Below, in pieces: positions 16,940 to 48,731 of a stretch of DNA of 64,000 nt; positions within the stretch are counted from its first letter, which is position 1, and each line of letters begins with the position of its first letter. Source of the stretch: an uncultured Candidatus Saccharibacteria bacterium (GTDB lineage Bacteria; Patescibacteriota; Minisyncoccia; Phycocordibacterales; Phycocordibacteraceae); the NCBI GenBank assembly GCA_964638585.1, contig CAZXAN010000001.1, positions 108,372-172,371 of the forward strand, given 5' to 3'. Both the position numbers and the translations under genes were made by a program. The notes beneath the pieces are model-generated. The model had not been told where the DNA came from. It saw nothing but the letters and a program-made list of their open reading frames with translations, and made no database searches.

Positions 16940-17227
16940 TTTCCTAACGAGGCTTCTTCGCTCCAGACCGATGGGGCGAGCTAGGATGTCCGCCCGAATT
17001 TACCAATGTCAATGACACGCTGAGCGCCGCCACATTTGCTGCCCATCAACGAGACCGTGTACCAACAAACTCTAAGAATCTTTCAAATTGGCAGATTTGT
17101 CGCCGGCGAATACACCTGGAGCCTACCTTGCATCGCTGTTGAAGCGGTGCATGCCCGAACTGTCACGTCGCTCTTGGGCACGTTTTCACCTCTTTGATGT
17201 CACTTTCAGCGCTCCTACGCTCTCGCC

Positions 17228-17437
17228 ATGGACGACAAGGAAGCACAGCGCGTCCGGGAGGCTTATAAGCAAGAGTTTGGCGAAGACCTTACGGAAAAAG
17301 AAGCAAGTGTAATGCTCACGCAGCTGGTGCAGCTTTATCTTCACATCTCGCGCCAGTTGCCACCTGACACGTCCGGCAATACCGACACTCTCAAAAAATA
17401 CAGTCGCTTCTCTAATGGATCATTGATGGCGGAATAG
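17228..17437 (+). CDS. small conserved protein, repeated family A (MDDKEAQRVRE...LVQLYLHISR)
   Basis: one of 4-5 paralogous copies (also 20353, 36957, 41044, 48430) with conserved upstream DNA. Confidence 0.5.
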   Translation: MDDKEAQRVREAYKQEFGEDLTEKEASVMLTQLVQLYLHISRQLPPDTSGNTDTLKKYSRFSNGSLMAE

Positions 17438-17830
17438 GTTGATGAACCATCTCGCAATTTTCTGCCAAAGCCCGAAGTGCGTCGGCGTGTCGAAATATTG
17501 CTCTCGGGCGCGTTGGTCGCTAAGGCGACCAGCCTCAATTTCACTCTTCGACCATTGAGGCGCCCAGACTATATTGTCGCCCCGTATCAAGTAATGAGAT
17601 CGACATGGTAGATTCCAGTTGCCGATTGATGGGTGAAGCGTGACTGCGCCTCGCTTTGTCGTAAGTTGCCATCCACCTGGTTTGAGGGGCGTTACTACCT
17701 TGCTTCCGCAGCCACAGCAGCAAAGATGGGATGCCGTTTTGTACTTGTGGGAGATATAAAGGACGCCGTTCTCTAACGTCTTCGGAATGAATTCAACAAA
17801 CTCGCCCCAGACGTGCTCAACCCTGCTCAT
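17420..17830 (-). CDS. DUF6527-like small Cys/His protein (putative non-canonical E2-like component)
   Basis: CCCGCGSKV...HPSIGNW...CRSHYLIRGDNIVW; start 14 nt inside E1 stop; internal Met chosen over 206-aa ORF. Confidence 0.6.
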   Translation of the reverse strand: MSRVEHVWGEFVEFIPKTLENGVLYISHKYKTASHLCCCGCGSKVVTPLKPGGWQLTTKRGAVTLHPSIGNWNLPCRSHYLIRGDNIVWAPQWSKSEIEAGRLSDQRAREQYFDTPTHFGLWQKIARWFINLFRHQ

Positions 17831-19007
17831 GTAAGTCTTCGTTAAGGAGCCGACCCGTGCCGATCGTGTAACTATTGAAGCGCTCATGCGTAAAATCAAA
17901 GTAGAAGCCGCGCATCTTCTTCCAGCGTATGACTGCAAGGGTCGCGTTAAGAGCATTGAGGTCAGCAATCTGAATGTTCTTGTCGTATTCATTGTTGCCG
18001 TCTCCGTCGGCAAACGACAACCGGTTTCTAGCAATGGCACGACTATCCTTGTCGCTCGTGGTCACGCGCAGTATGCCACCGATAGTTTCGTTGGTGACGT
18101 ACAGGCCCATGCCCGTATCGATAAATGGAATGCCAAATTCCTCTAGCTTTTCGACTATCAACTTCTTAGCCAACCCGGCATCGATGCACAAAAACACACA
18201 CGTCATTTCGCGCAACTGCTCCACGTTTGAGCTATCTACGTGCTCTCCGTGGGCGACGACACCGCGGTGCAACTTGGAATATATCGCCTTGAAGTAGTCC
18301 ACCTTTAACGGCTGTTGATGCAGCTCGTCTTTGGATGCGGCCCCAGGCGCACGAAATGCGTTGTGGGACGAAAATTTGTCCCCATCAAACAAGTGAACCT
18401 CTCTTGCCGGCGTCTTGGCCAGGAGATCTAAGACATACGAGCCTGTGCCACCCAATCCAACTATCGCCAACTTCTCAACTGCAAGCTTGTTCGTGATCAT
18501 GTTGATATCCGCACGAGCGGATGCGGTGTCGAGATAGTTGAACGGTGAATTGTCGTCCTCAGGCTCAACTACCCGAAACGTCCTGGCGGTCGCAGACGGA
18601 TCGATATTGGCTGCGTGACCAGAAAGAATGGCCACATAGGTCTTGATTTTCTCGTGGTAGTCCTCGTAGTGGCCACGCAGCGGCTTGCTGGAAAAATGGA
18701 ACTGCGAACTTAATGTGTCGCTGAATCGAACCACCTCTTCGATCAGGCTTAATGCTTCTATCGGGTGGCCCTCACTTGTACACGGGCATTGACCGGCGAA
18801 CCTAATTTGATGGGTGTCAGGCCGATTCGCAACATCCCCATTGAGGTTCAGGCTGCTAATGAGGATGCCATCGTACTGCACCTTCCGCTTGTCATTGACA
18901 TACGGAATGTCCCGGATAACCAGGTTCGCTCCGTGGATGTAGACATTGTATCCTTCATCTCGGAGGCGCCGCAGGTCAGCATTAAGATCGAATAGTTTTG
19001 ACGACAT
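17817..19007 (-). CDS. ThiF/MoeB-family E1-like enzyme with N-terminal E2-like domain
   Basis: Rossmann motif LAIVGLGGTGSYVLDLLAKTPAREVHLFDGDKF; N-terminal 140 aa with HQIRFAGQCPC resembling UBC H-x-N...Cys spacing. Confidence 0.75.
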   Translation of the reverse strand: MSSKLFDLNADLRRLRDEGYNVYIHGANLVIRDIPYVNDKRKVQYDGILISSLNLNGDVANRPDTHQIRFAGQCPCTSEGHPIEALSLIEEVVRFSDTLSSQFHFSSKPLRGHYEDYHEKIKTYVAILSGHAANIDPSATARTFRVVEPEDDNSPFNYLDTASARADINMITNKLAVEKLAIVGLGGTGSYVLDLLAKTPAREVHLFDGDKFSSHNAFRAPGAASKDELHQQPLKVDYFKAIYSKLHRGVVAHGEHVDSSNVEQLREMTCVFLCIDAGLAKKLIVEKLEEFGIPFIDTGMGLYVTNETIGGILRVTTSDKDSRAIARNRLSFADGDGNNEYDKNIQIADLNALNATLAVIRWKKMRGFYFDFTHERFNSYTIGTGRLLNEDLHEQG

Positions 19008-19248
19008 CAAAGATGGTCCCGTGTTTTTTAACCTCGACGGACCCGGCGGCGGCAAGCGTGCCGTGGTGCGGCTTGCTCTGTGCATGTTCGAATGTGATCG
19101 AAAAAATCACGTTCGGGTCTTCAGGATGCCCTGGATACGCGATATCGATGAGGGAATTGAACGTCATCACCTCGGTCAAGACCAAGTGCGGTGTGCCATT
19201 CACAATGATTTCGTACTCTTTTTCATGTGCCATGATGATTTTCTCCAC
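18982..19248 (-). CDS. small beta-grasp ubiquitin-like protein
   Basis: 88 aa, predicted beta-alpha-beta pattern (YEIIVNGTPHLV...VIFSITFE...SVEVKKHGTIFDVV); 22 nt upstream of E1; ends KTIRS, not Gly-Gly. Confidence 0.5.
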   Translation of the reverse strand: MEKIIMAHEKEYEIIVNGTPHLVLTEVMTFNSLIDIAYPGHPEDPNVIFSITFEHAQSKPHHGTLAAAGSVEVKKHGTIFDVVKTIRS

Positions 19249-19395
19249 CAGCTTCTAGGGTAAGTGCGACGCTGGTATCGCATTAGAAATTTTACGCCTG
19301 CTGTTAATAACATCAAGGGAATTCAAGGTCACATATTGTTATTGTGAGTAACATATGGTATCGTTGACACCGTGCGGTATTTTGCATAACCTGTT

Positions 19396-19779
19396 TTGCA
19401 CACCAAGCTTAAATCGATGACGACCGCAAGCGCTAAAATTGAAAAGAGTGATAGCGATATTGAACAGGAAATACGAGAAGCGATCGGAGCTCGGATCGCT
19501 GAGATTCGGCGCAAGCGGAAGCTTAGCGCGCGCCTGGTCGGAGAGAAGCTCAAGATAACTCGTGAAGCGGTCACACACATTGAGACAGGAAGAAATAACG
19601 TTACCGCGCTTTCTCTATGGAAGCTCGCGACGCTATTTCATTGCGACATTAAGGACTTCTTCCCGGATGTGCCTGACGGTTACGGTCTTACCAAGATCGA
19701 TACCGAGAAGATCGCCCAGGAGGGCGGCCAAAAGGCGGCCAATTGGGCGAAAGAGCTTTTCGGTGCCAAATTAAAGTAA
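19396..19779 (+). CDS. XRE-family HTH transcriptional regulator (CapH-like)
   Basis: GARIAEIRRKRKLSARLVGEKLKITREAVTHIETGRNN HTH; divergent from Ubl operon. Confidence 0.75.
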   Translation: MHTKLKSMTTASAKIEKSDSDIEQEIREAIGARIAEIRRKRKLSARLVGEKLKITREAVTHIETGRNNVTALSLWKLATLFHCDIKDFFPDVPDGYGLTKIDTEKIAQEGGQKAANWAKELFGAKLK

Positions 19780-19785
19780 ATCCGT

Positions 19786-20286
19786 ATGATGATAGAAAAA
19801 ATTGAATCGGCCGCCGAGCAACTCCTTGCGAGGTTAAATATAAGAGGAGTGCCTATTCCAATTGAAGACATCGCCCGCTCTCTCGATATACGCATCAGCC
19901 GTGCACCGAGTGCAGACTTTTCGGGACTTCTAATAAGAAAAGACGGCCACGCGCTCATTGGCGTCAATAGCAGTGAGGCTCCCGTACGTCAGCGATTCAC
20001 TATCGCGCATGAAATTGCTCACTTTATCTTGCACCCACAGAAAGATGCCTTTGTCGATTACAGAAAGGAAAGAAGTGGGGGAGAAGCCAGGCCACTGCGT
20101 GAGCGCTACGCCGATATGTTTGCAGCAGCTCTCCTTATGCCGCGTAAGATCCTGTTGAAAGATTTTCGACGGCTAGCCAAGGATGGGTATACCGATCAGA
20201 TTACCGTGGCTCTTGCTAGACAATACGCAGTAAGTGAAGATGCTATGCGCTTTAGACTATTGAATCTCAATTCAATCGGAAATTGA
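19786..20286 (+). CDS. ImmA/IrrE-family zinc metallopeptidase (CapP-like)
   Basis: HEIAHFILH HExxH motif in ImmA-like context directly after HTH gene. Confidence 0.8.
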   Translation: MMIEKIESAAEQLLARLNIRGVPIPIEDIARSLDIRISRAPSADFSGLLIRKDGHALIGVNSSEAPVRQRFTIAHEIAHFILHPQKDAFVDYRKERSGGEARPLRERYADMFAAALLMPRKILLKDFRRLAKDGYTDQITVALARQYAVSEDAMRFRLLNLNSIGN

Positions 20287-20352
20287 GTTCTCGCCATACT
20301 GGGTTTGTTTTCACCTCTTTGACGCCCTGATCGCTACGCGTATCCTCTCACC

Positions 20353-20523
20353 ATGGACTTGAAAGAAGCACAGCGCTTACGGCAACAAGCGCTCACATCA
20401 AGGACCAGACGGAGTCGCGGAAGCTTGACAAATATCGCGGCATGTCCCAGCTTGTGTGATGACCTTCGGGAACCACATCTATGCCAGGCCGATGATGACG
20501 GTCAAAATCGCAAAGCACTTTAG
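20353..20523 (+). pseudogene. degenerate copy of small-protein family A (MDLKEAQRLRQ...)
   Basis: conserved upstream DNA tttcacctctttgacgc...ctctcaccATGGAC shared with other A copies; product diverges after 10 aa. Confidence 0.35.
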
Positions 20524-25056: not shown

Positions 25057-27789
25057 GTGAAGGATAAGCGGGAGGCCAACAAGTGGGTGGATCCAAAGAG
25101 CCCGATAGCGGATACGGATACGCCCACGACGAGGAATCCAGAGGCATCGCCTCCAGATGACGAGGCTGCACTTCGCGTGTACTTGGACCTTCTTAACTCT
25201 AGGTTGAACTGCCTTGAGTTTGGAGATCCAAGTGAGCTTCTCCAGAGTTCGTATGGGCTGCGAGGCTCCATGAGCCGACTAGAGGATATTTGGGTCCCTC
25301 CGCTGCTGCGGGAAGTTCCCTTCGGCTATACTAATCCGCCAGACCAGCAGCAGGCTGCGCTTGAGGTCTCGCTAGATAGGGCGCTAGCGAAGCCAAGTAG
25401 AGTATACGTCTTCCTGGCTCAGCCAGGTGGAGGGAAGTCCACAGTATGCCGTTTCTTGGCATGTAAGATGTCGTCAGTGCTTCCTCGCTCAGAAGCTGAT
25501 CCTGTCCCAATATATCTCCCAGCGCGCTTCTTGCGTCTTGGGGAATCCGGAATCGATGACGCTGTGGTAAGCGCCGCGCTTGAGCAGCTTGGCAGCAGTG
25601 CCAATTCTGAGCCCGTGCGTTCCGCAGTTCGGCGTTCGCTTCCGCGAGCATTCGTGATCATTGACGGATTGGATGAAGTGCCCATAGGCCCCGATGGCCA
25701 GGTTGGTATCGAAACTACACGAGCTCGAGTGGTCCAAGTCGTTCGTTATCTATTTGCAACATACAAAGCGCTGCGTTGCCTCATTACCTGCCGTGAGGCG
25801 GATTACGTTCTCGATCGACAATCAATTCTCAGCGAGGCCAACCATTTCAGTATAGGTGGGTTATCCCCGGTTCAAGTGCAGACTGCCATCACGCGTTGGC
25901 ATACTGCTGCGGAAATTGCTGCAAGGCACGTGGCGTCCGCACCGGCGATCGACTGGCAGCAGCGAGCAATGGAGGTCCGAGAACTCATTCGGGCGGATGC
26001 GGAGATTGGGGCTATCGCTTCCGTTCCGTTGTTTCTCAATATGCTACAAGTCGTCTATTCCCCGGCGAAGGAGGCACCGCGCTCGATCAGTCAGCTGTGT
26101 GACAGGGCAATTCGCTTCCTCCTCTATGAGAAGCCGCGTCTTCGTAGTGACAGGGCAAAAGCGCCGGCCGGAGGTGGCGCTCGAATTGAGTTTCTCTGGC
26201 ATCCTCAATCAAGTGAATGGCTCTCTAGGATTCTCCAAGAGCTTGCCTACCAAATTCAGAAACGTTCCTTAGAGGGCGGTAGCCGCGGTGTTACATTACA
26301 GGAAATCCATGCTGTAGCCCTTACAGTAGTTGACGTAAAGGCGAGGGACATTAGTGAGTCGGGTCACCTTGCTTTGTCTGCTGTCGAGCATGTTGTTCAG
26401 GGTAATGGAGTACTCGCTGAAGAATCAGGGAGGTGGGATTTCACTCATAACATCTTTCGAGAAGTGTTGGCTGGGCAAGCGCTCCAGAGATACGACATTA
26501 CGCAAAGAGTAACCCTTGCTAAGACGCACGGCTGGCTTCTGCCTCTGCGCTATTGGGCTGGATATGTCGCTCTCTCGGAGGCTGGCATCGGCGAAATCTT
26601 TGTAATGGCGGCGGAGTTACGTCAGCGCGCACTTAGGAGCAAGAGGGATCGCGTAAATTACATATTGGCCGCTGCCGAGATTATGTGTGAAGTGAACTCC
26701 GTCAGCGAAACAGTCGAAGTTTTGTCGAAACTCAAGGAAAAGGTCCGACGTGACCTAATTAGACTGCTCGAAAACCGCAAACTGCCGTTGGCGCTTCGTG
26801 TACGCGCTGGCGATCTTCTCGGTTCTCTCGGCGACCCCCGCCTAGGGAAGTCATTTGTTGAAGCAGAGTTTGTTCGCATCCCGTCTCGCACATATACGGT
26901 AGGGCGCAACACGCCTCACACCGTATTAAATAAGAAATATGATGAGTGTCCCGCATCGCCCTGCGTTGTCGGCGACATGAGAGATTTCCGTATTGCATTA
27001 TTTCCCGTCACCAACCGTGACTACGCCGCGTTCATAGCAGATGGGGGTTACGAGGATTCCAGATACTATTGTTCGAAGGACTCGGCCCATTGGTTTCGCG
27101 GAGATGCCGGCTTTATGCAAGAATTGGCATCTCGTGTAGATCAGACTGCCCTAAAGCACTTCATGACTGAGTTGACTGCGGGTCGAGTGTCCGATCTAGA
27201 GTTGGTCGAGCTGCGGGACCGGATTCTCAAGCGAAATGCACCGCTCTATTGGTACGACCCGCGTTTTAATAGACCAAATCAACCTGTCGTCGGAATAAAC
27301 TGGTGGGAAGCGATGGCATTCTGTAGGTGGGCTGAAACAAAACTGCGAGCCGTGGGCGTCCTTCAAACAGGCGAGTCTGTGACGTTACCAACGGAGGTGC
27401 AGTGGGAGTGTGCCGCGAAGGGGCCTGATGATTCGGCTCCGCATCCGTGGGGAACTGCCGGCCCTGAGGATAATGCGCACGTTCGGACATCCAAGAGCAT
27501 CGCGCGGACCTGTGGAGTCGGATTGTTCCCGTGGGCGAGGTGCGCGGGTGGACCTCTAGATATTGTGGGGAACGTCTGGGAGTGGACCCGCTCGGTACCG
27601 GGGGTTCTCAAGGGCGCTTCATTTAGGAACGTTCCATCCACTGACGGTAATAGTGATCGTGTCGTGAGAGGCTCGTCTTGGCTGTCCACCGAGCCGGAGT
27701 CTGCGAGCATTACTTTCCGGTCCTTTGATCCACCCTGTAACGCCTACGAGGATCTCGGCTTCAGGATCGCAATCGTCGCACAGGAGTAG
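25057..27789 (+). CDS. STAND NTPase (NACHT-like) with HEAT/PBS-lyase-like repeat and C-terminal FGE-sulfatase (formylglycine-generating-enzyme-like) domain
   Basis: Walker A LAQPGGGKST, Walker B AFVIIDGLDEV; LGSLGDPR repeat; C-terminal RIALFPVTNRDYAAF...INWWEAMAFCRW...GNVWEWT...RVVRGSSW. Confidence 0.8.
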   Translation: MKDKREANKWVDPKSPIADTDTPTTRNPEASPPDDEAALRVYLDLLNSRLNCLEFGDPSELLQSSYGLRGSMSRLEDIWVPPLLREVPFGYTNPPDQQQAALEVSLDRALAKPSRVYVFLAQPGGGKSTVCRFLACKMSSVLPRSEADPVPIYLPARFLRLGESGIDDAVVSAALEQLGSSANSEPVRSAVRRSLPRAFVIIDGLDEVPIGPDGQVGIETTRARVVQVVRYLFATYKALRCLITCREADYVLDRQSILSEANHFSIGGLSPVQVQTAITRWHTAAEIAARHVASAPAIDWQQRAMEVRELIRADAEIGAIASVPLFLNMLQVVYSPAKEAPRSISQLCDRAIRFLLYEKPRLRSDRAKAPAGGGARIEFLWHPQSSEWLSRILQELAYQIQKRSLEGGSRGVTLQEIHAVALTVVDVKARDISESGHLALSAVEHVVQGNGVLAEESGRWDFTHNIFREVLAGQALQRYDITQRVTLAKTHGWLLPLRYWAGYVALSEAGIGEIFVMAAELRQRALRSKRDRVNYILAAAEIMCEVNSVSETVEVLSKLKEKVRRDLIRLLENRKLPLALRVRAGDLLGSLGDPRLGKSFVEAEFVRIPSRTYTVGRNTPHTVLNKKYDECPASPCVVGDMRDFRIALFPVTNRDYAAFIADGGYEDSRYYCSKDSAHWFRGDAGFMQELASRVDQTALKHFMTELTAGRVSDLELVELRDRILKRNAPLYWYDPRFNRPNQPVVGINWWEAMAFCRWAETKLRAVGVLQTGESVTLPTEVQWECAAKGPDDSAPHPWGTAGPEDNAHVRTSKSIARTCGVGLFPWARCAGGPLDIVGNVWEWTRSVPGVLKGASFRNVPSTDGNSDRVVRGSSWLSTEPESASITFRSFDPPCNAYEDLGFRIAIVAQE

Positions 27790-29508: not shown

Positions 29509-29812
29509 AGACTGGCTCGTAAGCTACAGGTAACTTAATCTTGTGCTACTGGCACATTATCCGGTCTTCGTACATTTGCATTCGGTCGCTAGATTTCGTG
29601 GATGCAGATTTCCAACGACGATCTCAATGAATTTATGGTGCTGTACCGGGCTGCGTTCCGGAAAGACATTTCTCAGCTGGAGGCTTGAGATGGCAACGCG
29701 CCTGATCCACCTCTACCTACTTGTCTACCGCCCTATACCCGGCGAGCACAGTGACCGCCCTACGCTGCCTTCGGAAGATCTTCGTGACCCTGATGCTTCT
29801 TTTCCAAATGCC

Positions 29813-29820
29813 GAATAATT
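29813..29820. repeat. 8-bp target-site duplication GAATAATT, left copy, IS66 element
   Basis: identical 8-mer at 32753-32760 immediately outside the IS66 inverted repeats. Confidence 0.7.
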
Positions 29821-29900
29821 GTAAGTGTCCCCAAATCCCCGCACTACCGCAGTTAATCTGAATATGTCAGCGTTCGTCCTTTTGACTGGGGAGGCGGACG

Positions 29901-36190: not shown

Positions 36191-36352
36191 GGGGCCGGCC
36201 TCTTCTTCAGACTTGGGCCGACCATCCTAAACCCCGACCAACTTGGTGCCGCCGGTGGTTCGTCGTCTGCGGCGGCTACGCCGCCTTCGACTCCTCACCA
36301 CCGGCCAGGATGATTGTCGCTAGACCGGACAAGATGATTGTCGCCGACTACA

Positions 36353-36787
36353 GTTGATAGATATGAATGAGCTGTGCCCAATATCCAATTGGTTGAAGAA
36401 GTTGTCCAGCCTAATCCAATCGTCTCCTTTGGCCGCATCCGCCTTGGTAAACCGCTCATCCAACATGCACATCATTCTGGTCAGAAGTACACGACGTGCC
36501 GTCCTTAGCTTGGATGGTGCATGAGTCGGGCCGAGATAATGTCCAGTGTTCGCCGCGAGGTCGATGTTGGTGAATACATCTTCCAAGTTCGGCCAAAACT
36601 TTGCGTTCGCCAATTTGTGGTGATCAAAAACATCATGAACGAAGGTGCCCAGATGTTCGATCAAAGGTTGGAAATTAGTAGATGGTTCAAGGAGCGCCGC
36701 GGTAAAATCGGCTTGAAGCGGAAGGCCAGCGTGATGCGAAAACCCCGCTCCGACAATGTAAACATGCGTGCGACCCAAAGTACTCAT
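36353..36787 (-). pseudogene. SIR2-like protein, N-terminal fragment
   Basis: MSTLGRTHVYIVGAGFSHHAGLPLQADF nucleotide-binding motif of SIR2_2 family; reading frame runs into IS21 end. Confidence 0.7.
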
Positions 36788-36956
36788 CTCTCATCCAGCC
36801 TGACCAATGACGACCCGTCCATACCCGGCGATGTTACTCGCCTAGTGGATAACGCGCATCAAATCTTACCGGCATCACCAAGACGGATCAAAGCCGTGCC
36901 CCGTAGACACGTTTCCACCCCTTTGACGCTTTGCTCGTTACACCTAAGCTCTCGCA

Positions 36957-37142
36957 ATGGATGACAAAGAAGCACGGCGCGTCCAGGAGTTTCAGGAGGC
37001 ATATGAGCAAGAGTTCGGCGAAGAGCTTACGACAGGAGAAGCGGGCGTGATGCTTACGCAGCTGGTGCAATTATATTTGCACATCTCCCGCCCGTCACCA
37101 CGGGACACGCCTGGGGTTAGCGATGACGTGACACAGAACTAA
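36957..37142 (+). CDS. small conserved protein, family A
   Basis: MDDKEARRVQEF...MLTQLVQLYLHISR; stop overlaps stop of convergent family-B ORF (CTAA). Confidence 0.5.
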   Translation: MDDKEARRVQEFQEAYEQEFGEELTTGEAGVMLTQLVQLYLHISRPSPRDTPGVSDDVTQN

Positions 37143-37269
37143 GCTGCCTTCTTGAATTCGTCACCTTCGAAGCGCTTCTTAAGCGCGCGGATATTTTCTA
37201 TGGTACGTTTAACTTCATCGTCGTCGCGGCTTAAAAAGGTGCGAACGTCGTTGACGAACGCCAGCTGAA
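37139..37269 (-). CDS. small conserved ORF, family B (…LAFVNDVRTFLSRDDDEVK...IRALKKRFEGDEFKKAA), no ATG start in this copy
   Basis: four copies differ mostly at synonymous positions, implying a coding constraint; first in-frame codon CTG after TGA. Confidence 0.4.
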
Positions 37270-37277
37270 GTCACACT

Positions 37278-37296
37278 TAGTCATACGCAGTAGTAC
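37278..37296. promoter_or_regulatory. imperfect palindrome AGTCATACGCAGTAGTACT upstream of RHH gene, candidate operator
   Basis: perfect version AGTCATACGCAGTATGACT recurs at 47188-47206 in the same context. Confidence 0.3.
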
Positions 37297-37399
37297 TGGT
37301 ACTAACACCCTCAAAAGTACCTAACTGAGCCATTTGTTGCCATCTAGGCACGTTGTCTCCTCTTTAGCAGCTCACCACGGCTGGAGACAATATCCACGT

Positions 37400-37558
37400 A
37401 TGGCGCGCACCACCATTACCTTTACGATCTCACTTCCTCCAGAAATGGCAGAGGAGCTTGAAGAAATAATGAAGAAAGAGCATCGCACGCGCTCCGAACT
37501 CATTCGGGAAGCACTGCGTCGATATGTCGCCGCTGTCGCTGAAGGTCGCCGTGAGTGA
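37400..37558 (+). CDS. ribbon-helix-helix (CopG/Arc-like) DNA-binding protein
   Basis: MARTTITFTISLPPEMAEELEEIMKKEHRTRSELIREALRRY. Confidence 0.7.
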   Translation: MARTTITFTISLPPEMAEELEEIMKKEHRTRSELIREALRRYVAAVAEGRRE

Positions 37559-37766
37559 GGAAGGAGCACTGCAACTGCACTTGACAAGTTTCCGAAAACG
37601 CTTAAGGTATCCAGGTGCGTTATTGTCCCACATTCGGTGCTCACAATTAGCCATACGTCAAGGGCCATTGGGTATCTCTAGATTAGAGGGTGAGGAATAG
37701 TTCTCCGATTGGTCATAGCAAGAACTTTATTTGCTAAACAAACTAAGTTCTACCCTGTGACCAATC

Positions 37767-41043: not shown

Positions 41044-41289
41044 TTGTCTACTTCAATCGTTATAGCGCACAACCTTTATGAATTCATGCTGGCGGCTTAC
41101 CGCATGTACCTCCGGCTCGAGTTCGAATGGAAACTGGGGAGCCTGGGGAAGGAACAGGAGGCTAGTCTCACGCGAGAGACTGGAGACGCAAGGTTAATGC
41201 TCCTACAGTTGGTTCAGTTGTACTTGCTCATCTCTCGTCGGCTACCGCCTGAACCGCCTGACACAAGCGACGCTCGACAAAAAGGCTAG
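41044..41289 (+). CDS. small protein, family A, N-terminally diverged copy
   Basis: C-terminal half ...LMLLQLVQLYLLISRRLPP matches family; N-terminus unrelated. Confidence 0.4.
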   Translation: MSTSIVIAHNLYEFMLAAYRMYLRLEFEWKLGSLGKEQEASLTRETGDARLMLLQLVQLYLLISRRLPPEPPDTSDARQKG

Positions 41290-41299
41290 GCAGCCTGTT

Positions 41300-41413
41300 T
41301 CAGATCGCAACTTCGAAGCGCTTTTTCAAAGCGCGTATGTTTGCTACAGTATCTTTAACTTCATCATCGTCCCTACTCAAAAAGGTGCGAACATCGTTGA
41401 TGAACGCCAGCAT
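41300..41413 (-). CDS. small ORF, family B, only copy with ATG start (MLAFINDVRTFLSRDDDEVKDTVANIRALKKRFEVAI)
   Basis: ATG CTG GCG TTC; other copies have CAG/TAG in place of ATG. Confidence 0.45.
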   Translation of the reverse strand: MLAFINDVRTFLSRDDDEVKDTVANIRALKKRFEVAI

Positions 41414-41498
41414 GGCTAGAAAATGTGCCATCCAGGCACGCAATCAATTCGTGACAAACCTTAGTTGCAACCTGGTCTATGGGGCATAGAATAGGGCT

Positions 41499-44417
41499 GT
41501 GAGCCATTTTGAAGATAGCTATGATGCGTTTCGATATCCTTTAAATTCTGAAGGAACCCCCGGATTTCGCCTCGCTCAACTAGGGGCGCTACATGCCGCC
41601 GCCTCTCACTTTGCCAATCGAAGCGAGCCGGGCATTGTGACAATGCCGACTGGATCAGGTAAGACCGCGGTATTGATTGCAGCGGCGTACGTACTTCGTT
41701 CGAAACGGGCTCTCGTCATTACACCGAGCAGACTTGTCCGTGAGCAAATTGCCGAGGAGATCGCAAACCTTAGAACCTTAAAAGAAGCCGGAGCTTTGCC
41801 ACAAGATCACCCGACGCCCAGAGTAATGAGTACTCGTAATAAGGTCCGGAGCACGGCGGAATGGGAGGACATGCGCAATTACGATGTAGTTGTTGCCACT
41901 GTACAAAGCATCAGCCCGGAATTTGAGGGCATACCTGAACCACCCCCAGATTTGTTTGATCTTGTTTTGGTAGATGAAGCACATCACAGTCCCGCACGCA
42001 CTTGGCAAGCAGTCTTGGATCATTTTGACTCAGCAAAGCGACTTTTGTTCACAGCAACCCCCTTTCGACAAGATCAAAAGGAAATTAAGGGACGCTTCAT
42101 TTTTACATATGATCTTCGGGCTGCTTACAACGATGGTGTTTTCGGCGAAATTTCATATCACCCCGTTACGCCGCAGGCTAATGAGAGTCACGATGAAGCT
42201 ATTGCTGAGGCGGCCGAAGCACAATTCAGGGCGGATGAACAAGCCGGATATCGACATCGGGTTATGGTTAGAACTGATGGACTCAAAAGAGCGCAAGACC
42301 TACTTGCGGTATATGAACGAACAACGGATTTACGGCTCAAGCTAGTTACTGGCAATAACTCTCTACGATATGTAAAGCAGGTAATCAGGCAGCTTGGCGA
42401 CGGTGAGCTTGACGGTATAGTGTGCGTCAATATGCTCGGGGAAGGATTCAACTTTCCCGCCTTAAAAATCGCAGCGATTCACGCACCACATAAGTCGCTT
42501 AGCGTCACACTGCAGTTTGTGGGACGGTTTGCACGTACGGTAGGGGAAAACTTAGGTCCAGCCACGTTTCTAGCAGTTCCATCGGACGTCGAAATAGAAG
42601 CCGAGCGCTTGTACGATACAAGAGCTGTGTGGCAAGAGATTATACAAAATCTCGCGGCTCTTCGTGTCGGCCAGGAAGCAGATGTTCGTGAAGTTCTCCA
42701 GTCTTTTGCCGCCATAGACTCTGCACCCGATCTCTCAGACCTGTCTCTTTATGTTCTTGAGCCCTACTATCATGTAAAGGTGTATCAACTCGAAGAAGAT
42801 ATTGATATTGAGGACCAGATCGGATTTCCATCTAGATTTCAAATCGTATTTCACGCAGTTAGCGTTCCTCACAACGCCGCAATTTATATCACACGAGAGA
42901 TAAGTCAGCCTAGATGGACGGCCGATGACAGGCTTTCAAATGTTGAATCAGACTTATTCATTTTTTATTACGATACCGCCACAAAACTGTTATTCGTTTG
43001 TGCATCTAAAAGGACGGCGGGCCTTTACGACGAAATAATCGAGGCGTTTGCAGATGCCGATCCGCGACCTCTGCCACTTGTACGCTTGAACAAAGCACTA
43101 AACGACCTTACGGCACCCGAGTTCTTCAATGTGGGCATGAGAAATCGTGTTTCTTCAAATACAACTGAGTCGTATCGCATCATTACCGGATCAAATGCCG
43201 ACAAGTCTGTTTTGAAAAGTGATGGACGTCTCTACCATCGAGGACACGTATTTGGGCGTGCCACAGAGGAAGGCAACGCCGTCACAATTGGTCTTAGTAG
43301 TGCTTCAAAAATATGGAGTAATAGGAGTTCTAAGCTCCCGGAGCTAATAGCATGGTGTTCAAAACTCGCCCAAAAGATAAGCAGCGATCGGATTCCCATT
43401 ACGAACTCGGGCCTGGATTATTTGGATGCAGGTCAGCAACTAGAAGTGTTGCCTGAGGATATTATCGCTGTCGATTGGCCGACCAATGTTTATCGCAGCT
43501 CCATTTCGGCTCGCTTTATTAATTCTGCTGGAACCGAAGTACGCGCTCCTCTCGTTGATTTCAGCCTCTTGATCGATAAACCCGCATCTACTGCGGAAGC
43601 AATCATGATTGAGTTGAAGTATGACGACACCGCGTATCGTTTTACATTCTCTTTTAATACAGATCGGTTTTTTGAGCTAGCGGACCCGGGACAACCGGAG
43701 ATAAGTGTCGAACACAATCGAACTCTCGTTCCTTTAATAGACTTCGTAAACGAAGAAATGTTGCTCTTCTATACAGCCGATCTTTCCTTGGTTGATGGAT
43801 ACAACATATTCCGAGCTCCAGTGGAACCACCACCACCGCTCAATGACGCTGCAATCGAAGTAATCGACTGGGCCGCCGGAAACGTCAACATTCAACGGGA
43901 ATTCGGTGATGCTGGAGCGGGAAGGCATTCAATCCACGAGCACATGGAGTCGGTAGTCAATTCTGGGGAATCGACTGTTGCATATTATGACCATGGAACT
44001 GGAGAAATTGCGGACTTTGTTACCTTCAAGGAAGATGATGGACGAATTCTCGTACAGTTCTATCACTGCAAAGGAGCTACGGGCGCAGCTCCAGGACATC
44101 GATTAGCCGATATTGCTGAGGTCACAAGTCAGGTTGTTAAGTCTGTAACCTGGGCTCGGAAGCAAAGAATCATGAGTAGTATTCGGCGCAGATTTACCAA
44201 AAATATAGGGAGTCACCGGTTCTTGCGAGGCGATCTCGGCACCTTGGAGCAACTATTGGCCCCCGCGGCTCCTGCGTCAGTGGATTTTGAGTTTATTGCT
44301 GTGCAGCCAGGACTTCGAAAAGAAGGTCTTACAAATGAGATATCGAACATGCTGGCAGCAGCCAGCGACTACCTCGTAAGAGCGGGGTTTAAACCACTTC
44401 GGATTTTTTCGTCATAA
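41499..44417 (+). CDS. SF2 DEAD/DEAH-box helicase (type III restriction Res-like core) with about 590-aa uncharacterised C-terminal domain
   Basis: motif I MPTGSGKT, II LVLVDEAHH, III TATP, VI QFVGRFAR; C-terminal region has no recognised motifs except a possible D...QFYHCK nuclease-like segment. Confidence 0.85.
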   Translation: MSHFEDSYDAFRYPLNSEGTPGFRLAQLGALHAAASHFANRSEPGIVTMPTGSGKTAVLIAAAYVLRSKRALVITPSRLVREQIAEEIANLRTLKEAGALPQDHPTPRVMSTRNKVRSTAEWEDMRNYDVVVATVQSISPEFEGIPEPPPDLFDLVLVDEAHHSPARTWQAVLDHFDSAKRLLFTATPFRQDQKEIKGRFIFTYDLRAAYNDGVFGEISYHPVTPQANESHDEAIAEAAEAQFRADEQAGYRHRVMVRTDGLKRAQDLLAVYERTTDLRLKLVTGNNSLRYVKQVIRQLGDGELDGIVCVNMLGEGFNFPALKIAAIHAPHKSLSVTLQFVGRFARTVGENLGPATFLAVPSDVEIEAERLYDTRAVWQEIIQNLAALRVGQEADVREVLQSFAAIDSAPDLSDLSLYVLEPYYHVKVYQLEEDIDIEDQIGFPSRFQIVFHAVSVPHNAAIYITREISQPRWTADDRLSNVESDLFIFYYDTATKLLFVCASKRTAGLYDEIIEAFADADPRPLPLVRLNKALNDLTAPEFFNVGMRNRVSSNTTESYRIITGSNADKSVLKSDGRLYHRGHVFGRATEEGNAVTIGLSSASKIWSNRSSKLPELIAWCSKLAQKISSDRIPITNSGLDYLDAGQQLEVLPEDIIAVDWPTNVYRSSISARFINSAGTEVRAPLVDFSLLIDKPASTAEAIMIELKYDDTAYRFTFSFNTDRFFELADPGQPEISVEHNRTLVPLIDFVNEEMLLFYTADLSLVDGYNIFRAPVEPPPPLNDAAIEVIDWAAGNVNIQREFGDAGAGRHSIHEHMESVVNSGESTVAYYDHGTGEIADFVTFKEDDGRILVQFYHCKGATGAAPGHRLADIAEVTSQVVKSVTWARKQRIMSSIRRRFTKNIGSHRFLRGDLGTLEQLLAPAAPASVDFEFIAVQPGLRKEGLTNEISNMLAAASDYLVRAGFKPLRIFSS

Positions 44418-44477: not shown

Positions 44478-46380
44478 CCAGAATCGGGTAGGAGGCGGGG
44501 TCACCCCCGCCGTCCTCCCACACCACCGGACGTGCGGTTCCGCATCCGGCGGTTCATTGAACACACTGGAGTCGTCGCATCGTATCGAGCAGCGACACCA
44601 GACCGGAACGATCGAAGAAGGACTTCGGGAATGCCTGGTTCATGTGGCTTGCGCCACTGTTCCACCACGGCCCACGTTGGTTGAAGGCCGAGCGAAACGC
44701 CCGTTCTTCCGTCAGTCCCGCCTTCATCAGGTTCATGGCGCGAGTATAAGGGCGTTTCCACTGTCGCCACAGAATGCAGCGCAATTTGTGCCGGATCCAG
44801 CCATCCAACTCTTCCAGCGCCCGCTTGGTCTCGGTCAGCCGAAAGTAGGCCATCCAGCCGCGAAGGATCGGGTTGAGTTCGGTGATGACCTTGGTCAGGC
44901 TGCGACCTCTCGCGCCCTTGAGTACTTCCCGAATTTTGTCTTCCAGCCGCTGCAGGCTGGTCGGCGCAATCCGCAGTTTCGGGGTCTTATGCCACGTCAG
45001 GCTGTAACCCAGAAACTTCCTCGTCCACGGACGCGCCACCGCGCTCTTGGCCGCATTGACCGTGAGCTTGAGCGTGTCCGCCAGAAACTGAGTGATGCTC
45101 GCCATCACCCGCTCTCCCGCCTGTTGGCTTCTGACGTAGATGTTGCAGTCGTCCGCATACCGGCAGAAGGCATGGCCCCGGCGTTCCAGTTCCCGATCCA
45201 GTTCCGTCAGCAGAATGTTCGATAGCAGCGGACTGAGCGGCCCGCCTTGCGGCGTGCCTTCCGTCCTCGGGGAGACGATCCCCTCTGCCATCATGCCCGC
45301 TTCGAGATACCGGCGAATGAGGCGCAGCACTCGTGCGTCACCGATCTTCTTCGAGAGCTTCTCCATCAGTAAATCGTGATTGACGCGGTCGAAGAATTTC
45401 TCCAAGTCCACGTCCACCACAATCCTGCGACCTTCGGCGACATACTGCTTGGCCGCCTTGAGCGCTTGATGCGCGTTCCTCCCCGGTCGAAAGCCGTAAC
45501 TCGATTCGGAGAAGTCAGCCTCGAAGATCGGCGAGAGCGCCTGATGCAACGCTTGCTGGATCATCCGATCCGTCAGCGTCGGAATGCCGAGTGTCCTGAC
45601 TCCACCTTGCGGTTTCTGTATATCCACCCGGCGTACCGCTGAGGGCCTGTATTCCCCCGTCAGCAGTTTGGCTTTGATCCTCGGCCAGTGTTGCTTGAGG
45701 TGGTCTTTGAACTCGGCAACGCCAATGTCGTCGACTCCGGCTGCGCCTTTGTTCTCGACCACCCTCTGATAGGCGAGCTTCAGGTTGCCGCGCTCACACA
45801 CGACCTCCATCAGCCCGCTTTCCCGCTTCAACTCCGCTTTCGTCCGCAGACGGTTCGTCACGTCAGCCTCAGCGCCCAGCGCGGCTGCCTCGGCGTTGCG
45901 CGCCAACGCTTCCGTTCGGGTATCCACTTGCCGTGGGTCTTCTGCCTTCATCGACTGTCCATGTGTTCCCGCCGCCTACTTGCGGCATTCCCTGTTCGGC
46001 CCTTCGGTTCATGCAGACACCTAATATGGCCTCTGCTGACTTCTGCATGAGCCTCCCCGCACCTTTCGACGCCGGTAGCACAGAGGTTGCCCTCGGCACC
46101 CATGCAGATCTCCCCGGGTATGACGCACCCACCTTCACGCTTATACCTGTCGGATATACGTCACGGCGTTCCGTGCAAGTTCCGGGCTTCGACGATAATT
46201 GCCGTCTTACCCCACCGTGCCGCCTCGTATCCGCTTCCTATTCGTCAGGCCAGCGCTTTGCCTTCGGCTTCCTCCAGATCCGTGGTCGCCCACGACACCC
46301 TTGCCGTTCAGCTAACTCTTCCCCTTGCCGGGCGAGTAAAGGACTTCCACCTCCAAGTGAGTGCGCCCTGCCGGGCGCAC
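44478..46380 (-). mobile_element. group II intron (likely class C) with intron-encoded reverse transcriptase
   Basis: 5' GTGCGCCC at 46380 (minus strand) directly after a GGCGCC-N6-GGCGCC hairpin plus TTTGTCATT; RT ORF; domain V-like hairpin 44521-44554 and domain VI-like hairpin 44485-44518; 3' boundary approximate. Confidence 0.75.
44554..45951 (-). CDS. group II intron reverse transcriptase/maturase
   Basis: RT motifs including [11 protein letters not shown] (YADD), maturase X region. Confidence 0.9.
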
Positions 46381-46389
46381 AATGACAAA

Positions 46390-46407
46390 GGCGCCATTTC
46401 TGGCGCC
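46390..46407 (-). terminator. rho-independent terminator hairpin downstream of mazF-like gene; intron insertion point
   Basis: minus-strand GGCGCCAGAAATGGCGCC followed by TTTGTCATT, then intron 5' end. Confidence 0.5.
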
Positions 46408-46500
46408 TTATTCTGAAGCGGTAGCGGGCTTGTCATCACCCATTTGCCACCGCTTGCTTCCTTTCGGAAGTCTTACCGGCCCCTTTCGGGAACAAGTACA

Positions 46501-46905
46501 TTATCTCTCCACAGGGGTGTCTTTGTCAATATGCAGGGCAATCCCCACACAATGGCGGATTGCCGCAAGCTCATCGGCTGGAATGCTCGGAACAACGTAC
46601 TCCCGCTTTGCCACTTTATACCGATCCAGCCGGGCAAGCGACACCGTCACCACCATGTCGCACTTTGCCCATGTCACCAGGTCTTTCGGCTTATCCGGAA
46701 GCGGGTTTTCCTTCAGCATATGGTGATACGGAGCAACCGGCTTTGGCTGCTTCGTTGAGAGCGGTACAACCGTTACCAACTGTGCATTGCTTTTGTGCTT
46801 CGCAATGATCACGACCGGCCGCTTCTTCACCATCTCGGGGACGACGAAGCCGTGGAAATCGCAGATGACGACGCTACCGGCTTTGGGTTGGAATTTGAGT
46901 GGCAT
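46501..46905 (-). CDS. PemK/MazF-family toxin-like protein
   Basis: KAGSVVICDF, KRPVVIIA, LVTVVPLST spacing typical of MazF/Kid fold; good RBS GAGGAAAAATCATG. Confidence 0.65.
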   Translation of the reverse strand: MPLKFQPKAGSVVICDFHGFVVPEMVKKRPVVIIAKHKSNAQLVTVVPLSTKQPKPVAPYHHMLKENPLPDKPKDLVTWAKCDMVVTVSLARLDRYKVAKREYVVPSIPADELAAIRHCVGIALHIDKDTPVER

Positions 46906-47034
46906 GATTTTTCCTCATTGTTACGGGTAACGATACATCAGTCAATGTGCATTACTTCTCCCTTCACCGTATGCGCCACGAGGTCGCGCAAAAAGACGTG
47001 AGAATTTTCTTGTGCGGCACGTTCTCACGCCTTC

Positions 47035-47173
47035 GTGATTAGATCCGACGCGTTTATTTTGTCCTGATGCGCACGGTCGTCATTTTCGAAGCGTTTTTTA
47101 AGCTCGCGGATGTTTGCTATAGTATCCTTAGCTTCATCGTCGTCTCGACTTAAAAAGGTGCGAACGTCGTTGA
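47035..47173 (-). CDS. small ORF, family B, longer C-terminal variant, upstream of mazF-like gene, no ATG
   Basis: …LAFINDVRTFLSRDDDEAKDTIANIRELKKRFENDDRAHQDKINASDLITKA; 130 nt upstream of and co-directional with the toxin-like gene. Confidence 0.4.
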
Positions 47174-47187
47174 TGAACGCCAGCTAA

Positions 47188-47206
47188 AGTAATACCTAGT
47201 CATACG
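47188..47206. promoter_or_regulatory. perfect 19-bp palindrome AGTCATACGCAGTATGACT upstream of RHH gene
   Basis: 7-bp arms AGTCATA/TATGACT around CGCAG; conserved with 37278-37296. Confidence 0.35.
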
Positions 47207-47306
47207 CAGTATGACTCAGCTAAAACGGCTGAATTACGTACTTTGTTGCCGCCTTGGCACATTCACACGTCTTGTTCGCGCCTGCCTATCGGAAGAGACT
47301 GGTCGC

Positions 47307-47444
47307 ATGCCACGTATAACCGTTACGTTCTCGATCTCCCTCCCTCCAGAAATGGCTGTTGAGCTGGAAGAGACAATGAAAAGGGAGCATCGCACGCGCT
47401 CCGAACTCATTCGTGAAGCGCTGCGTCGGTATTTTTCGCAATAA
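47307..47444 (+). CDS. ribbon-helix-helix (CopG/Arc-like) protein, second copy
   Basis: MPRITVTFSISLPPEMAVELEETMKREHRTRSELIREALRRYFSQ. Confidence 0.7.
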   Translation: MPRITVTFSISLPPEMAVELEETMKREHRTRSELIREALRRYFSQ

Positions 47445-47452
47445 AACAAGAA

Positions 47453-47475: not shown

Positions 47476-47491
47476 TTCAGGACAAACGAAT

Positions 47492-48253
47492 CTACACCTT
47501 GCGAAGGTGGAACACGATCCGAGAGCTGGAATCCAGTGCATCCTTGATGTCGGTGTTGTGTGCGCTCAGCTCGCCCAGCATGCTGCCTTTGTTCTCCAGC
47601 ACGAACACTCGTGGATCGCCCTCGGAATCGATTATCCGTTTCATTGCAATCCAGAGAACTTCACCTTTCGGCTGATCCTTGTATTGCTCGCGGATATGCG
47701 GACCAGCTTCAGCAGGAAGTAATTCGATGCTGTAGCCATCTGGAAGACGATGTGCATTGCGCATGTTCCATTGAGCGAGACATCCTGGATGAAGCAATTC
47801 CCTTATGCTCGGAATGCGTTTGTAACCAAGACCAGCTGGTGAAAGCATGATTGTTTCAATCCTCTTTTCTGGACGATGGGTGGTAAACGGCCTTTGCGCC
47901 ATCAAGTTTCTGGCCCAGTATTCGATGGAGAATCCGACGTCGATTCTCGCAAGAAGAGTATTCTTATTCACTCCGCCGATGAGAAAACTACGCCACCTGA
48001 TGAACTTCTTTAGAGCGGCGCGAACGGCATCCCGGTCAATATTCCACAAATCGACATCCAGTATGTCTGAAAGGATCCCAGACTCGTAGAGCGCTGCAAG
48101 TTGCTCGCTAGTCGGATCCTTAGCCTTGATGAGATTAAGCGCGTGAAGTGCTTGGCCAAAACTTGGTTTGCTCATAGGTTTCTCCCTATTAAGCGCTACT
48201 CCTAATTTGGGTAGCGATGCTAATCGGCACTTCGGAGGATTCCGGTTTGCCAT
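47492..48253 (-). CDS. hypothetical protein
   Basis: 253-aa ORF (possibly starting MSKPSFGQ), no motif recognised. Confidence 0.45.
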   Translation of the reverse strand: MANRNPPKCRLASLPKLGVALNREKPMSKPSFGQALHALNLIKAKDPTSEQLAALYESGILSDILDVDLWNIDRDAVRAALKKFIRWRSFLIGGVNKNTLLARIDVGFSIEYWARNLMAQRPFTTHRPEKRIETIMLSPAGLGYKRIPSIRELLHPGCLAQWNMRNAHRLPDGYSIELLPAEAGPHIREQYKDQPKGEVLWIAMKRIIDSEGDPRVFVLENKGSMLGELSAHNTDIKDALDSSSRIVFHLRKV

Positions 48254-48429
48254 AGCGGAGAATGGCTTAACGAGTAAGCCGCTTTCTGCTATGGCAAATG
48301 CAAATTGAACCTATCAAAGAACTCGAATAACAGTAGCAAAGAAATTCAATCAGTCAAGGTGGGTTGAGAGAACAATGTGGCACGTTCTCCATCCTTGTAC
48401 GTACGAGAGCGGTACGCGATGCTGTATGT

Positions 48430-48585
48430 ATGGACAACAAAGAATCACAACGTGTTCGAGAATTCCAGGAGGCAGTCAGGGAAGAGTTCGTGGAGGATCT
48501 TCCAGAGAAGGATGCAAGGATAATGCTCCAGCAACTGGTTCAGTTGTACTTGCTCATCTCGCGTCCTTTACCGGAGAAAAGCTAA
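48430..48585 (+). CDS. small conserved protein, family A (MDNKESQRVREF...LVQLYLLISR)
   Basis: fourth full copy; stop overlaps convergent B ORF. Confidence 0.5.
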   Translation: MDNKESQRVREFQEAVREEFVEDLPEKDARIMLQQLVQLYLLISRPLPEKS

Positions 48586-48710
48586 GCCGCCTTCTTGAAT
48601 TCACCACCTTCAAACCGCTTCTTGAGTGCGCGAATGTTTGCTACAGTATCTTTGACTTCATCGTCGTCGCGGCTCAAAAAGGTGCGAACGTCGTTGATGA
48701 ACGCCAGCTG
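48582..48710 (-). CDS. small ORF, family B, copy at the accessory-region/backbone junction, no ATG
   Basis: …LAFINDVRTFLSRDDDEVKDTVANIRALKKRFEGGEFKKAA; ends 15-20 nt from rdgB start. Confidence 0.35.
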   Translation of the reverse strand, partial: QLAFINDVRTFLSRDDDEVKDTVANIRALKKRFEGGEFKKAA

Positions 48711-48731
48711 TGAGCATGAAATTTAAAAATC

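Follow-up and report, generated by a model that had tools for sequence, protein, structure and literature searches.

A pair of short convergent reading frames, A and B, recurs along a genomic island in a 64,000-nt stretch of DNA from an uncultured Candidatus Saccharibacteria bacterium (contig CAZXAN010000001.1, positions 108,372 to 172,371; the whole stretch is called the window here, and positions are given in its own numbering). These A-B units are probably the right-end modules of integrative elements or cassettes that were moved by one family of large serine recombinases (LSRs), with the attachment site inside the recombinase's own gene. B is the last 41-42 codons of an LSR gene and not a small gene in its own right. 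An earlier reading of the same DNA (the original prediction) had described the units as a repeated small-gene cassette found at module boundaries. The units are real and they do mark these boundaries, and its suggestion that they could be sites of recombination is supported by a shared sharp junction and by an empty site on the related contig L021.

Six copies were found in the window with a repeat finder and nhmmer, for which the fullest copy (36900-37560) was used as the query (c17, c20, c36, c41, c47, and c48, Table 1). They are all on the plus strand in direct orientation, and their translations reproduce the A, B, and two RHH peptides of the original prediction. The A-B units are 60-90% identical across ~300 bp and every one is a direct repeat; the copies in the window differ by 15-40% from each other and their flanks are unique. 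Allowing one mismatch, the window has four occurrences of the 27-nt B core (GGTGCGAACGTCGTTGATGAACGCCAG), all on the plus strand, against a chance expectation of 0. The same arrangement recurs at 100% identity in several independent metagenome assemblies.

The identity of B was reached by extending every B match upstream in frame. On the related contig L007, the B homolog forms the last 42 residues of a 531-aa LSR with Resolvase, Recombinase, and Zn_ribbon_recom domains (tail ...NIEAKKPFRRWPTTGSNSRLLAVINDVRTFLSRDDDEVKDTVANIRALKKRFEGGELKQAA), and on L024 B is likewise contiguous with an intact LSR. A search with the L007 LSR found at least 7,885 relatives, and nearly all of the 120 best LSR clusters listed have the tail IEAKKPF-x14-L(A/G)xIxDVRT...NIRxLKxRF...KAA. 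The LSRs of L007, L022, and the clusters P0019-P0138 carry PF00239, PF07508, and PF13408. Pfam and NCBIfam had no family for A or B. When 5.8 billion proteins were searched with a word index, only four clusters resembled B and 14 resembled A; all of these were short proteins, most of them from metagenomes of groundwater or Patescibacteria. With tblastn, no LSR body of this family was found within the window, and neither the unit nor the backbone gave a BLAST match to plasmids or the E. coli genome. It had been claimed that only one B copy has an ATG and that B might be an independent gene initiated at CTG. The count of start codons holds, as only c41 has an ATG, and c36, c47, and c48 have no ATG, GTG, or TTG from the preceding stop codon to the conserved block. 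The independent gene is replaced by the displaced 3′ end of an LSR gene: the frame is intact and has no start because B belonged to a functional recombinase gene until integration split that gene.

Split forms of the LSR gene were found beside tRNA-Gln genes (a slash marks the junction in all sequences below). The LSR of L023 (388-1917, minus strand) follows the family sequence to ...SNSRLL and then reads RVRDSNPNTILQRDVSYH, which is the antisense reading of tRNA-Gln(ctg) at L023 377-448. The DNA of this fusion is ...CCCTGACCCGCAG/CAGTCGTGAATTACT (short form ...CCCGCAG/CAGTCGTGAATTACT), so the LSR is cut at the junction nucleotide of B. Its missing tail lies 9.85 kb off in the same orientation (B/CAAAAAGTGCG...), and two junctions between A-B and a palindrome (pal2) with an RHH gene lie between. 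A distant LSR on L025 (33% identity) has the same layout, with tRNA-Gln/LSR at one end and A convergent with a B-like tail at the other. Moreover, three of the best 120 LSR clusters (P0021, P0023, and P0126) end at the same position in antisense-tRNA peptides. In the simplest interpretation, the LSR open reading frame (ORF) contains attP, and the gene is partitioned when the element integrates into the 3′ end of tRNA-Gln.

In a plus-strand alignment of 18 B copies, taken from the window and from eight further contigs, all are conserved to ...AAAAAGGTGCGAACGTCGTTGATGAACGCCAG/C (short form ...GATGAACGCCAG/C) and diverge completely beyond this point. The 33 nt before the junction are nearly invariant, synonymous sites included, and the synonymous divergence of B is 0.13 in codons 1-11 versus 0.59 in codons 12-33, suggesting an overlapping constraint at the DNA level, as for a recombinase half-site. 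The synonymous-site pattern had been ascribed to selection on the protein, which is true in part. Third codon positions dominate the differences (16/12/59 by codon position among the B copies of the window; 11/9/27 between the A genes of c36 and c48), conservation is thus not equal at all codon positions, and the median pN/pS across all loci is 0.29 for A and 0.24 for B. However, protein-level selection is not the whole explanation, given the 4.5-fold lower synonymous divergence in the first 11 codons of B. All four half-sites of the window share the strand of the LSR gene. The junction in L007 and L024 falls within the intact LSR gene, in a small dyad (GACTGC-CA-GCAGTC); judged by eye, 11 of 17 arm positions are symmetric there, and the symmetry is weak in the reconstructed attP of the window. 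The attL sites (tRNA-Gln/LSR; L023, L025, and L108) and the attR sites (B/flank) have only CAGCA or CCAGCTG in common.

The genome under study has its own split LSR, P0021, which is 90% identical to the LSR of L007 and shares its listed contig (185,431 nt) with the A protein of the window. The Logan contig ERR3094302_15494 (21.5 kb) carries both P0021 and window positions 1-4312 at 100% identity. P0021 maps to −17178 to −15589 in window numbering and is on the minus strand, like all B copies; it ends in ...ERNSLQL/GDLESNQN and overlaps tRNA-Gln(ttg). In window orientation, this attL reads ...GGTTCGATTCCAAGTCCCCCAGCTG/AAGTGAATTTC (short form ...CCCCCAGCTG/AAGTGAAT), and c48 reads ...GATGAACGCCAGCTG/TGAGCATGAAATTTAAAAATC-ATG(HAM1) (short form ...ACGCCAGCTG/TGAGCATG). 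The two sites have only CCAGCTG in common, and joining P0021 (...NSLQL) in frame with c48 (QLAFINDVR...) regenerates the family tail. The junction of c48 (48707/48708) is 24 nt before the start of HAM1/RdgB at 48732, where the backbone begins. The genes around HAM1 place the host in the Patescibacteria (Paceibacterota-like). Thus tRNA-Gln/P0021 and c48 B/HAM1 point to an element of ~66 kb that runs from tRNA-Gln to 48,708 and resembles an integrative and conjugative element (ICE). No duplicated 3′ end of tRNA-Gln(ttg) that could serve as an alternative right border was found in the window, and a profile scan of the genome contigs with the A alignment found nothing. The circular form of the element is predicted to have the junction ...GATGAACGCCAGCTGAAGTGAATTTC... 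with an intact LSR ORF of ~560 aa, and the predicted empty site between tRNA-Gln(ttg) and HAM1 is ...TCCCCCAGCTGTGAGCATGAAATTT....

The element contains ArdC, an N6/N4 methyltransferase, a second unrelated LSR, two Ser/Thr kinases (4236-6373), two TrwB/VirD4-like ATPases (6971-9751 and 10175-11377), RadC (11514-12080), and DprA (15515-16420). Its defence-type cassettes encode Bub E1/BubE, NACHT-FGE, a SIR2-like gene, Mrr-nSTAND, a ResIII helicase, and PemK. The island forms the distal part of this element. The ICE-like gene set is located in window positions 1-16500 and ~17 kb leftward (L106 and L110), and the related LSRs of L114 and L115 are accompanied by similar sets. The unrelated LSR (723-2780, plus strand) has 685 aa, with Resolvase and Recombinase domains and three C-terminal HTH domains.

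One internal cassette is present in the window and absent from a related strain exactly at the junction. The first 565 nt of L021 are 97.2% identical to window 36361-36925 (left flank of c36), its last 407 nt are 94.6% identical to window 41412-41818 (right flank of c41), and one A-B unit separates the two. Over its 5′ 105 nt, the B of this unit is c36-like (93.3% identity versus 80.8% for c41), including diagnostic bases 12 and 21 nt from the junction, and the c41 flank starts directly after GCCAGC, so that the switch falls within the last ~11 nt. This arrangement indicates a 4.1-kb cassette, pal2-RHH-100aa-Mrr/nSTAND-A′-B, that is either present or absent at the junction, and a breakpoint at this place is not predicted by a crossover inside the B homology. 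Other loci also vary in content. In L019 an A-B unit directly follows the helicase, where the window holds a group II intron. In L007 the PemK cassette is directly downstream of the intact LSR, and L010 has a PemK-family gene at the equivalent position.

Based on these arrangements, we propose that the LSR gene itself contains the attachment site of the enzyme, ~42 codons ahead of the stop codon, with the core CAGC(A/T)G. The first ~11 codons of B would be the left half-site and the LSR codons before them the right half-site. Integration into the 3′ end of tRNA-Gln would split the LSR gene. The LSR body would stay beside the tRNA as attL and gain a short tail translated from the tRNA's antisense strand, while the last 42 codons (B) and the convergent A would be carried to the far end as attR. 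The B of c48, next to HAM1, would then be the displaced tail of P0021, and the two would delimit the ~66-kb ICE-like element. The internal B copies (c36, c41, and c47) would mark further cassettes inserted at, or exchanged between, B sites, and a typical cassette would run from pal2-RHH or pal1 through the defence gene(s) to A and the convergent B, ending at the junction. We infer that the LSR catalyses these integration events, and the same holds for the order of insertion and for whether or not the truncated LSR is inactive ("gene capture").

Several points weigh against this reading. The dyad around the core is clear in L007, but the sites of the window itself show it weakly. Neither a circular nor an excised form of the element was found, and the attB of this genome is a reconstruction. 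No island-free HAM1 locus was found either, since all HAM1 contigs were occupied or broken within the repeat; among 40 HAM1 loci checked (80 fetched), only one had tRNA-Gln within 1.5 kb upstream, and with such poor synteny an empty attB could not be shown. Both L023 (10532-10546) and L025 (10558-10573) have a further, partial tRNA-Gln 3′ end ~200 nt past the proposed attR, and in L025 the decayed 3′ end of an older LSR comes after it. These suggest repeated use and decay of the site, and the simple model does not fully explain them. Classical LSRs recombine attP with attB only, but the arrays need recombination between sites with the same left half, so either a non-canonical LSR activity or homologous recombination within the ~300-bp A-B homology would be required. 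L021 is a 1.3-kb metagenomic contig, for which a chimeric assembly across the repeat is possible. Finally, B is missing from c17 and c20, where the breakpoints are irregular, suggesting that some boundaries arose by ordinary rearrangement.

In a competing explanation, the units are blocks of homology (recombinase 3′ end plus neighbouring gene) shuffled by RecA-dependent homologous recombination and the internal copies are not site-specific. Direct repeats with 60-90% identity over ~300 bp would be suitable substrates, the left-hand breakpoints vary (c17, c20, c41, and c47), the L021 unit is internally mosaic, and canonical LSRs are not expected to recombine two sites with one half in common. 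However, 18 copies have their right boundary at one and the same nucleotide, the switch in L021 is within the last ~11 nt, and the synonymous positions of the half-site are constrained. The outer ends (tRNA-Gln/LSR and B/HAM1) have only the 7-bp core in common, which is far too short for homologous recombination. We therefore regard this explanation as unlikely.

It is far less probable that A and B are two small genes with a selfish or regulatory role (such as a toxin-antitoxin pair), duplicated together across the island, and that B is translated from CTG. Both frames are under purifying selection, some B copies have an ATG (c41, L007 5328, L010 10308, and L021), and an RHH gene and a PemK toxin are nearby. 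But B is contiguous with the C-terminus of the 531-aa recombinase in L007 and also with that in L024, and the homology boundary is the common DNA junction that is also found in the tRNA-LSR fusions. Unlike type II toxin-antitoxin genes, A and B are convergent and form no operon, three of the four B copies in the window have no standard start codon, and neither protein matched a toxin-antitoxin or regulator family in Pfam or NCBIfam, nor did A match one in PHROGs. The idea that A and B are toxin and antitoxin partners was not upheld. Two further readings, that the repeats come from misassembly or collapse or that they are structured and non-coding like integron attC or REP elements, could appeal to the breaking of short-read contigs in the conserved 28-nt core and to the palindrome (pal1) beside the units. 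Both are effectively refuted by the unique flanks and 15-40% differences recovered identically in several independent assemblies and by the strong third-codon-position bias, and Rfam matched only the group II intron and no integron integrase was found among the ORFs examined.

The recombinase reading could be taken further. It is possible, though rather doubtful, that this LSR family uses self-partitioning as a built-in switch within a serine-recombinase, integron-like platform that stacks defence cassettes in the tiny genomes of the Candidate Phyla Radiation (CPR). Integration at a naive tRNA-Gln would strip the 42-residue tail and lock the element in ("gene capture"). Integration beside a resident B site would supply a new tail, and the recombinase would stay competent. 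The helical protein A would bind the tail and set directionality.

Table 1. Repeat copies in the window and their parts (window coordinates; a slash marks the junction)
Feature	Position	Strand	Content
c17, nhmmer match	17174-17398	+	Upstream motif and A
c20, nhmmer match	20305-20382	+	Upstream motif and ~10 codons of A
c36, nhmmer match	36900-37560	+	A, B, palindrome, RHH
c41, nhmmer match	41172-41412	+	A 3′ half and B
c47, nhmmer match	47076-47434	+	B, palindrome, RHH
c48, nhmmer match	48382-48712	+	A and B
c17	17174-17437	+	pal1 right arm and promoter-like region 17174-17227; A gene 17228-17437, 69 aa, C-terminus replaced; no B after A; adjoins inverted Bub (ubiquitin-like) module
c20 remnant	20300-20382	+	pal1 right arm, promoter-like region, only first ~10 A codons
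c36 A unit	36889-37142	+	pal1 (AAAGCCGTGCC-CCGT-AGACACGTTTCC), −35 TTGACG / −10 TAAGCT, −10 box six nt before ATG; intact A gene 36957-37142, 61 aa, identical to P0005
c36 B	37139-37264	−	LSR 3′ tail, 41 codons and stop, no start codon; half-site 37238-37264; junction 37264/37265
Left end of next cassette	37279-37558	+	pal2 37279-37297 (degenerate, AGTCATACGCAGTAGTACT); pal1-like motif 37347-37360; RHH/CopG 37400-37558
c41 A′	41172-41289	+	A 3′ half only, probably a pseudogene; 5′ half replaced by Mrr-nSTAND upstream region
c41 B	41300-41413	−	LSR tail, ATG directly before LAFIND, divergent 3′ end; half-site 41384-41410; junction 41410/41411
PemK/MazF-like cassette	46381-47023	−	Gene 46501-46905; 90% identical to L007 10064-10705
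c47 B	47025-47183	−	LSR tail, no start codon, 3′ end replaced, A lost; half-site 47157-47183; junction 47183/47184; degenerate pal1 at 47010-47036
Left end of last cassette	47198-47444	+	pal2 47198-47216, perfect (AGTCATAC-GCA-GTATGACT); RHH/CopG 47307-47444
c48 A	48382-48585	+	Promoter-like region; A gene 48430-48585, 51 aa
c48 B	48582-48709	−	Putative displaced tail of P0021, forming attR; half-site 48681-48707; core CAGCTG 48704-48709

The overlapping stop codons (CTAA) described for the convergent A and B genes are present in c36 and c48, but in c41 the two frames are separated by a 10-nt gap. A palindrome with an RHH gene was confirmed at two cassettes, c36 and c47 (Pfam RHH_1, E = 2.8e-13), and the B copy of c47 does lie upstream of the MazF-like gene in the same direction. 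Short-read contigs tend to end within the conserved 28-nt core, and two independent short-read contigs (L117 and L119) start at position 1 exactly within this half-site. The repeat thus fragments assemblies, and such islands are probably under-represented in metagenome-assembled genomes.

Two classes of sites can be distinguished by the sequence that follows the junction. In class 1 (c41, L021, L007 5328, L007 7204, L010 10308, and L019), pal1 (GAAAACGTGCC-N4-GGCACGTTTTC) is located 6-8 nt past the junction. In L010, pal1 directly follows the 3′ end of tRNA-Gln, and therefore B/pal1 looks like a canonical attR in which pal1 is the tRNA terminator or b′ arm. Likewise, the B of c41 is followed by pal1 at 41419-41445, which indicates an attR-type site (B/tRNA-terminator-like arm). 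The palindrome is also found just upstream of the −35 box of A (TTGACG-N16/17-TAtGCT-6 nt-ATG), where the promoter-like sequence suggests that the A mRNA may be leaderless, and a related pal1-like motif precedes RHH. We considered pal1 as the true crossover site and rejected it, because the outer junctions (tRNA/LSR and B/HAM1) have no pal1. It fits better as the tRNA-Gln terminator (b′ arm) and also as an operator or terminator upstream of A.

In class 2 (c36, c47, and two sites in L023), the sequence after the junction resembles the LSR-side arm (CTGAAGTcac, CTAAAGTaat, and CACGAGTaat, compared with CTGAAGTGAAT and CAGTCGTGAAT on the LSR side), and past this arm come pal2 and then RHH. Besides the two sites in the window, pal2 is found in L023 at ~7430 and ~8800. 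Its arms co-vary between loci (AGTCATAC...GTATGACT versus AGTCGTAC...GTACGACT). As a guess from the sequence, pal2 might be the operator of RHH, and RHH might be a cassette-borne repressor.

Family A is under purifying selection. The 61-aa protein of c36 is predicted to be a hairpin of two helices (H3-20 and H26-43, pLDDT 84) and a Pro-rich tail that is disordered, and a Foldseek comparison of the model with the PDB gave no significant match. A profile search found 510 clusters at E ≤ 1e-3, and all those listed were short. The relatives we inspected have the common pattern ...EFxEAYkEEFgEE...EA..mL.rLv.lY.ll.RPLP..., and no Pfam or PHROGs family was found for the distant ones. Even in distant relatives (L025, L115, and L121), A-like genes are convergent to LSR tails or tail remnants, but the pairing is not universal, as L114 has an LSR of this family without an adjacent A. 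Our guess is that A might be a recombination directionality factor or a regulator that binds the tail.

There are several other features in the island. The Bub module at 17440-20290 (ubiquitin-like, E1, BubE, M78 peptidase, and HTH) is inverted relative to the A-B orientation of L008 348-3148, and it is bracketed by c17, whose A has a replaced C-terminus, and c20, an A stump. A candidate frameshifted LSR at 17420-19085 was rejected, as this region is the Bub E1/BubE module. A 910-aa NACHT NTPase fused to an FGE-sulfatase-like domain is encoded at 25057-27789 (plus strand), with metabolic-looking flanks (haem-oxygenase-like, 2-hydroxyacid dehydrogenase, aldolase II, and DAO). IS66-family genes (29800-32667, with TnpB_IS66 and the DDE transposase 30608-32143) and an IS21-family element (33600-36352, genes 34685-36190 and 33846-34688) interrupt the island between c20 and c36; inverted repeats at 33609-33685 and 36300-36352 look like the ends of the latter. 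The group II intron (44483-46295, minus strand) matched the Rfam D1-D4 and D5/6 models, has a reverse transcriptase ORF at 44554-45951, and is located between the helicase gene and the PemK cassette. At three independent loci, the window (Table 1), L007 (10190-10588), and L010 (10465-10851), a PemK/MazF-like gene without a recognisable antitoxin is directly downstream of an LSR tail in the same direction.

The nearest known parallel is found in the SSV-type "suicidal" tyrosine integrases of archaeal viruses and plasmids. Their ORF contains attP, and when the element inserts into a tRNA gene the integrase gene is partitioned and each end of the element keeps a fragment (PMC8371274; PMC7253208). 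This partition leads to capture of the element, and integrase fragments are scattered in chromosomes (PMC8371274; PMC7253208). A 2021 review described suicidal integrases as exclusive to archaea (PMC8371274). The elements described here are similar in that the attachment site is in the recombinase's own ORF and the gene is split on integration: L007, L024, and almost all of the 120 best clusters listed have the intact gene, and P0021, P0023, P0126, and L025 have the split one. However, the recombinase is a serine recombinase and the host belongs to Patescibacteria, so they are an analogue and not a member of the SSV type. Moreover, only the last ~42 residues are split off here, and the catalytic, recombinase, and zinc-ribbon domains stay intact. 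In full-text searches of a partial literature collection, we found no description of a serine recombinase with attP in its own ORF or of such elements in CPR bacteria. This absence does not prove that a serine, bacterial version is new.

If the proposed mechanism is true, the principle of an attP inside the integrase gene extends from archaeal tyrosine to bacterial serine recombinases. Pipelines for LSR attachment sites and mobile-element boundaries would have to look inside the recombinase ORF, and truncated LSR genes fused to tRNA would be integrated forms, which matters for choosing LSRs in genome engineering. The mechanism would also explain how a ~66-kb mobile element that stacks defence genes was built up in a small-genome bacterium (the host genome is presumably ~1 Mb, typical of CPR), and it gives exact cassette boundaries. 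A is a candidate for a new family of LSR accessory proteins. Such elements would be of considerable interest to researchers working on mobile elements and defence islands.

Composite islands also arise in SCCmec, in which the CcrAB LSRs act at the 3′ end of rlmH/orfX and elements accrete in tandem with a direct repeat of this gene end at every junction. SCCmec arrays include elements without a recombinase, which are possibly mobilised in trans. In the window, in contrast, the repeated 3′ end is that of the recombinase's own gene, the repeats are coding modules of 125-450 bp and not ~15-bp repeats, and the primary target is tRNA-Gln. In tycheposons, successive integrations at a tRNA gene push older elements inward, leaving degraded integrases and repeated attachment-site scars, and the cargo is adaptive or defensive (bioRxiv 10.1101/2020.12.28.424599). 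Their scars are partial tRNAs and their integrases are mostly tyrosine recombinases, whereas the scars here are recombinase tails with a conserved companion gene.

In the integration-dependent immunity of mycobacteriophages, attP is inside the repressor gene and integration alters the C-terminus of the protein. That system differs in that a repressor gene is affected and the integrase is a tyrosine integrase. Integrons are similar to the island in having a one-directional array of promoter-poor cassettes that each end in a conserved recombination element and are individually present or absent. Nevertheless, there was no IntI among the ORFs examined, no attI, and no folded single-stranded attC, and Rfam gave no attC-type or other RNA match to the repeats. 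The repeats of the island are coding and three to four times longer than those of integrons, and the recombinase belongs to another class.

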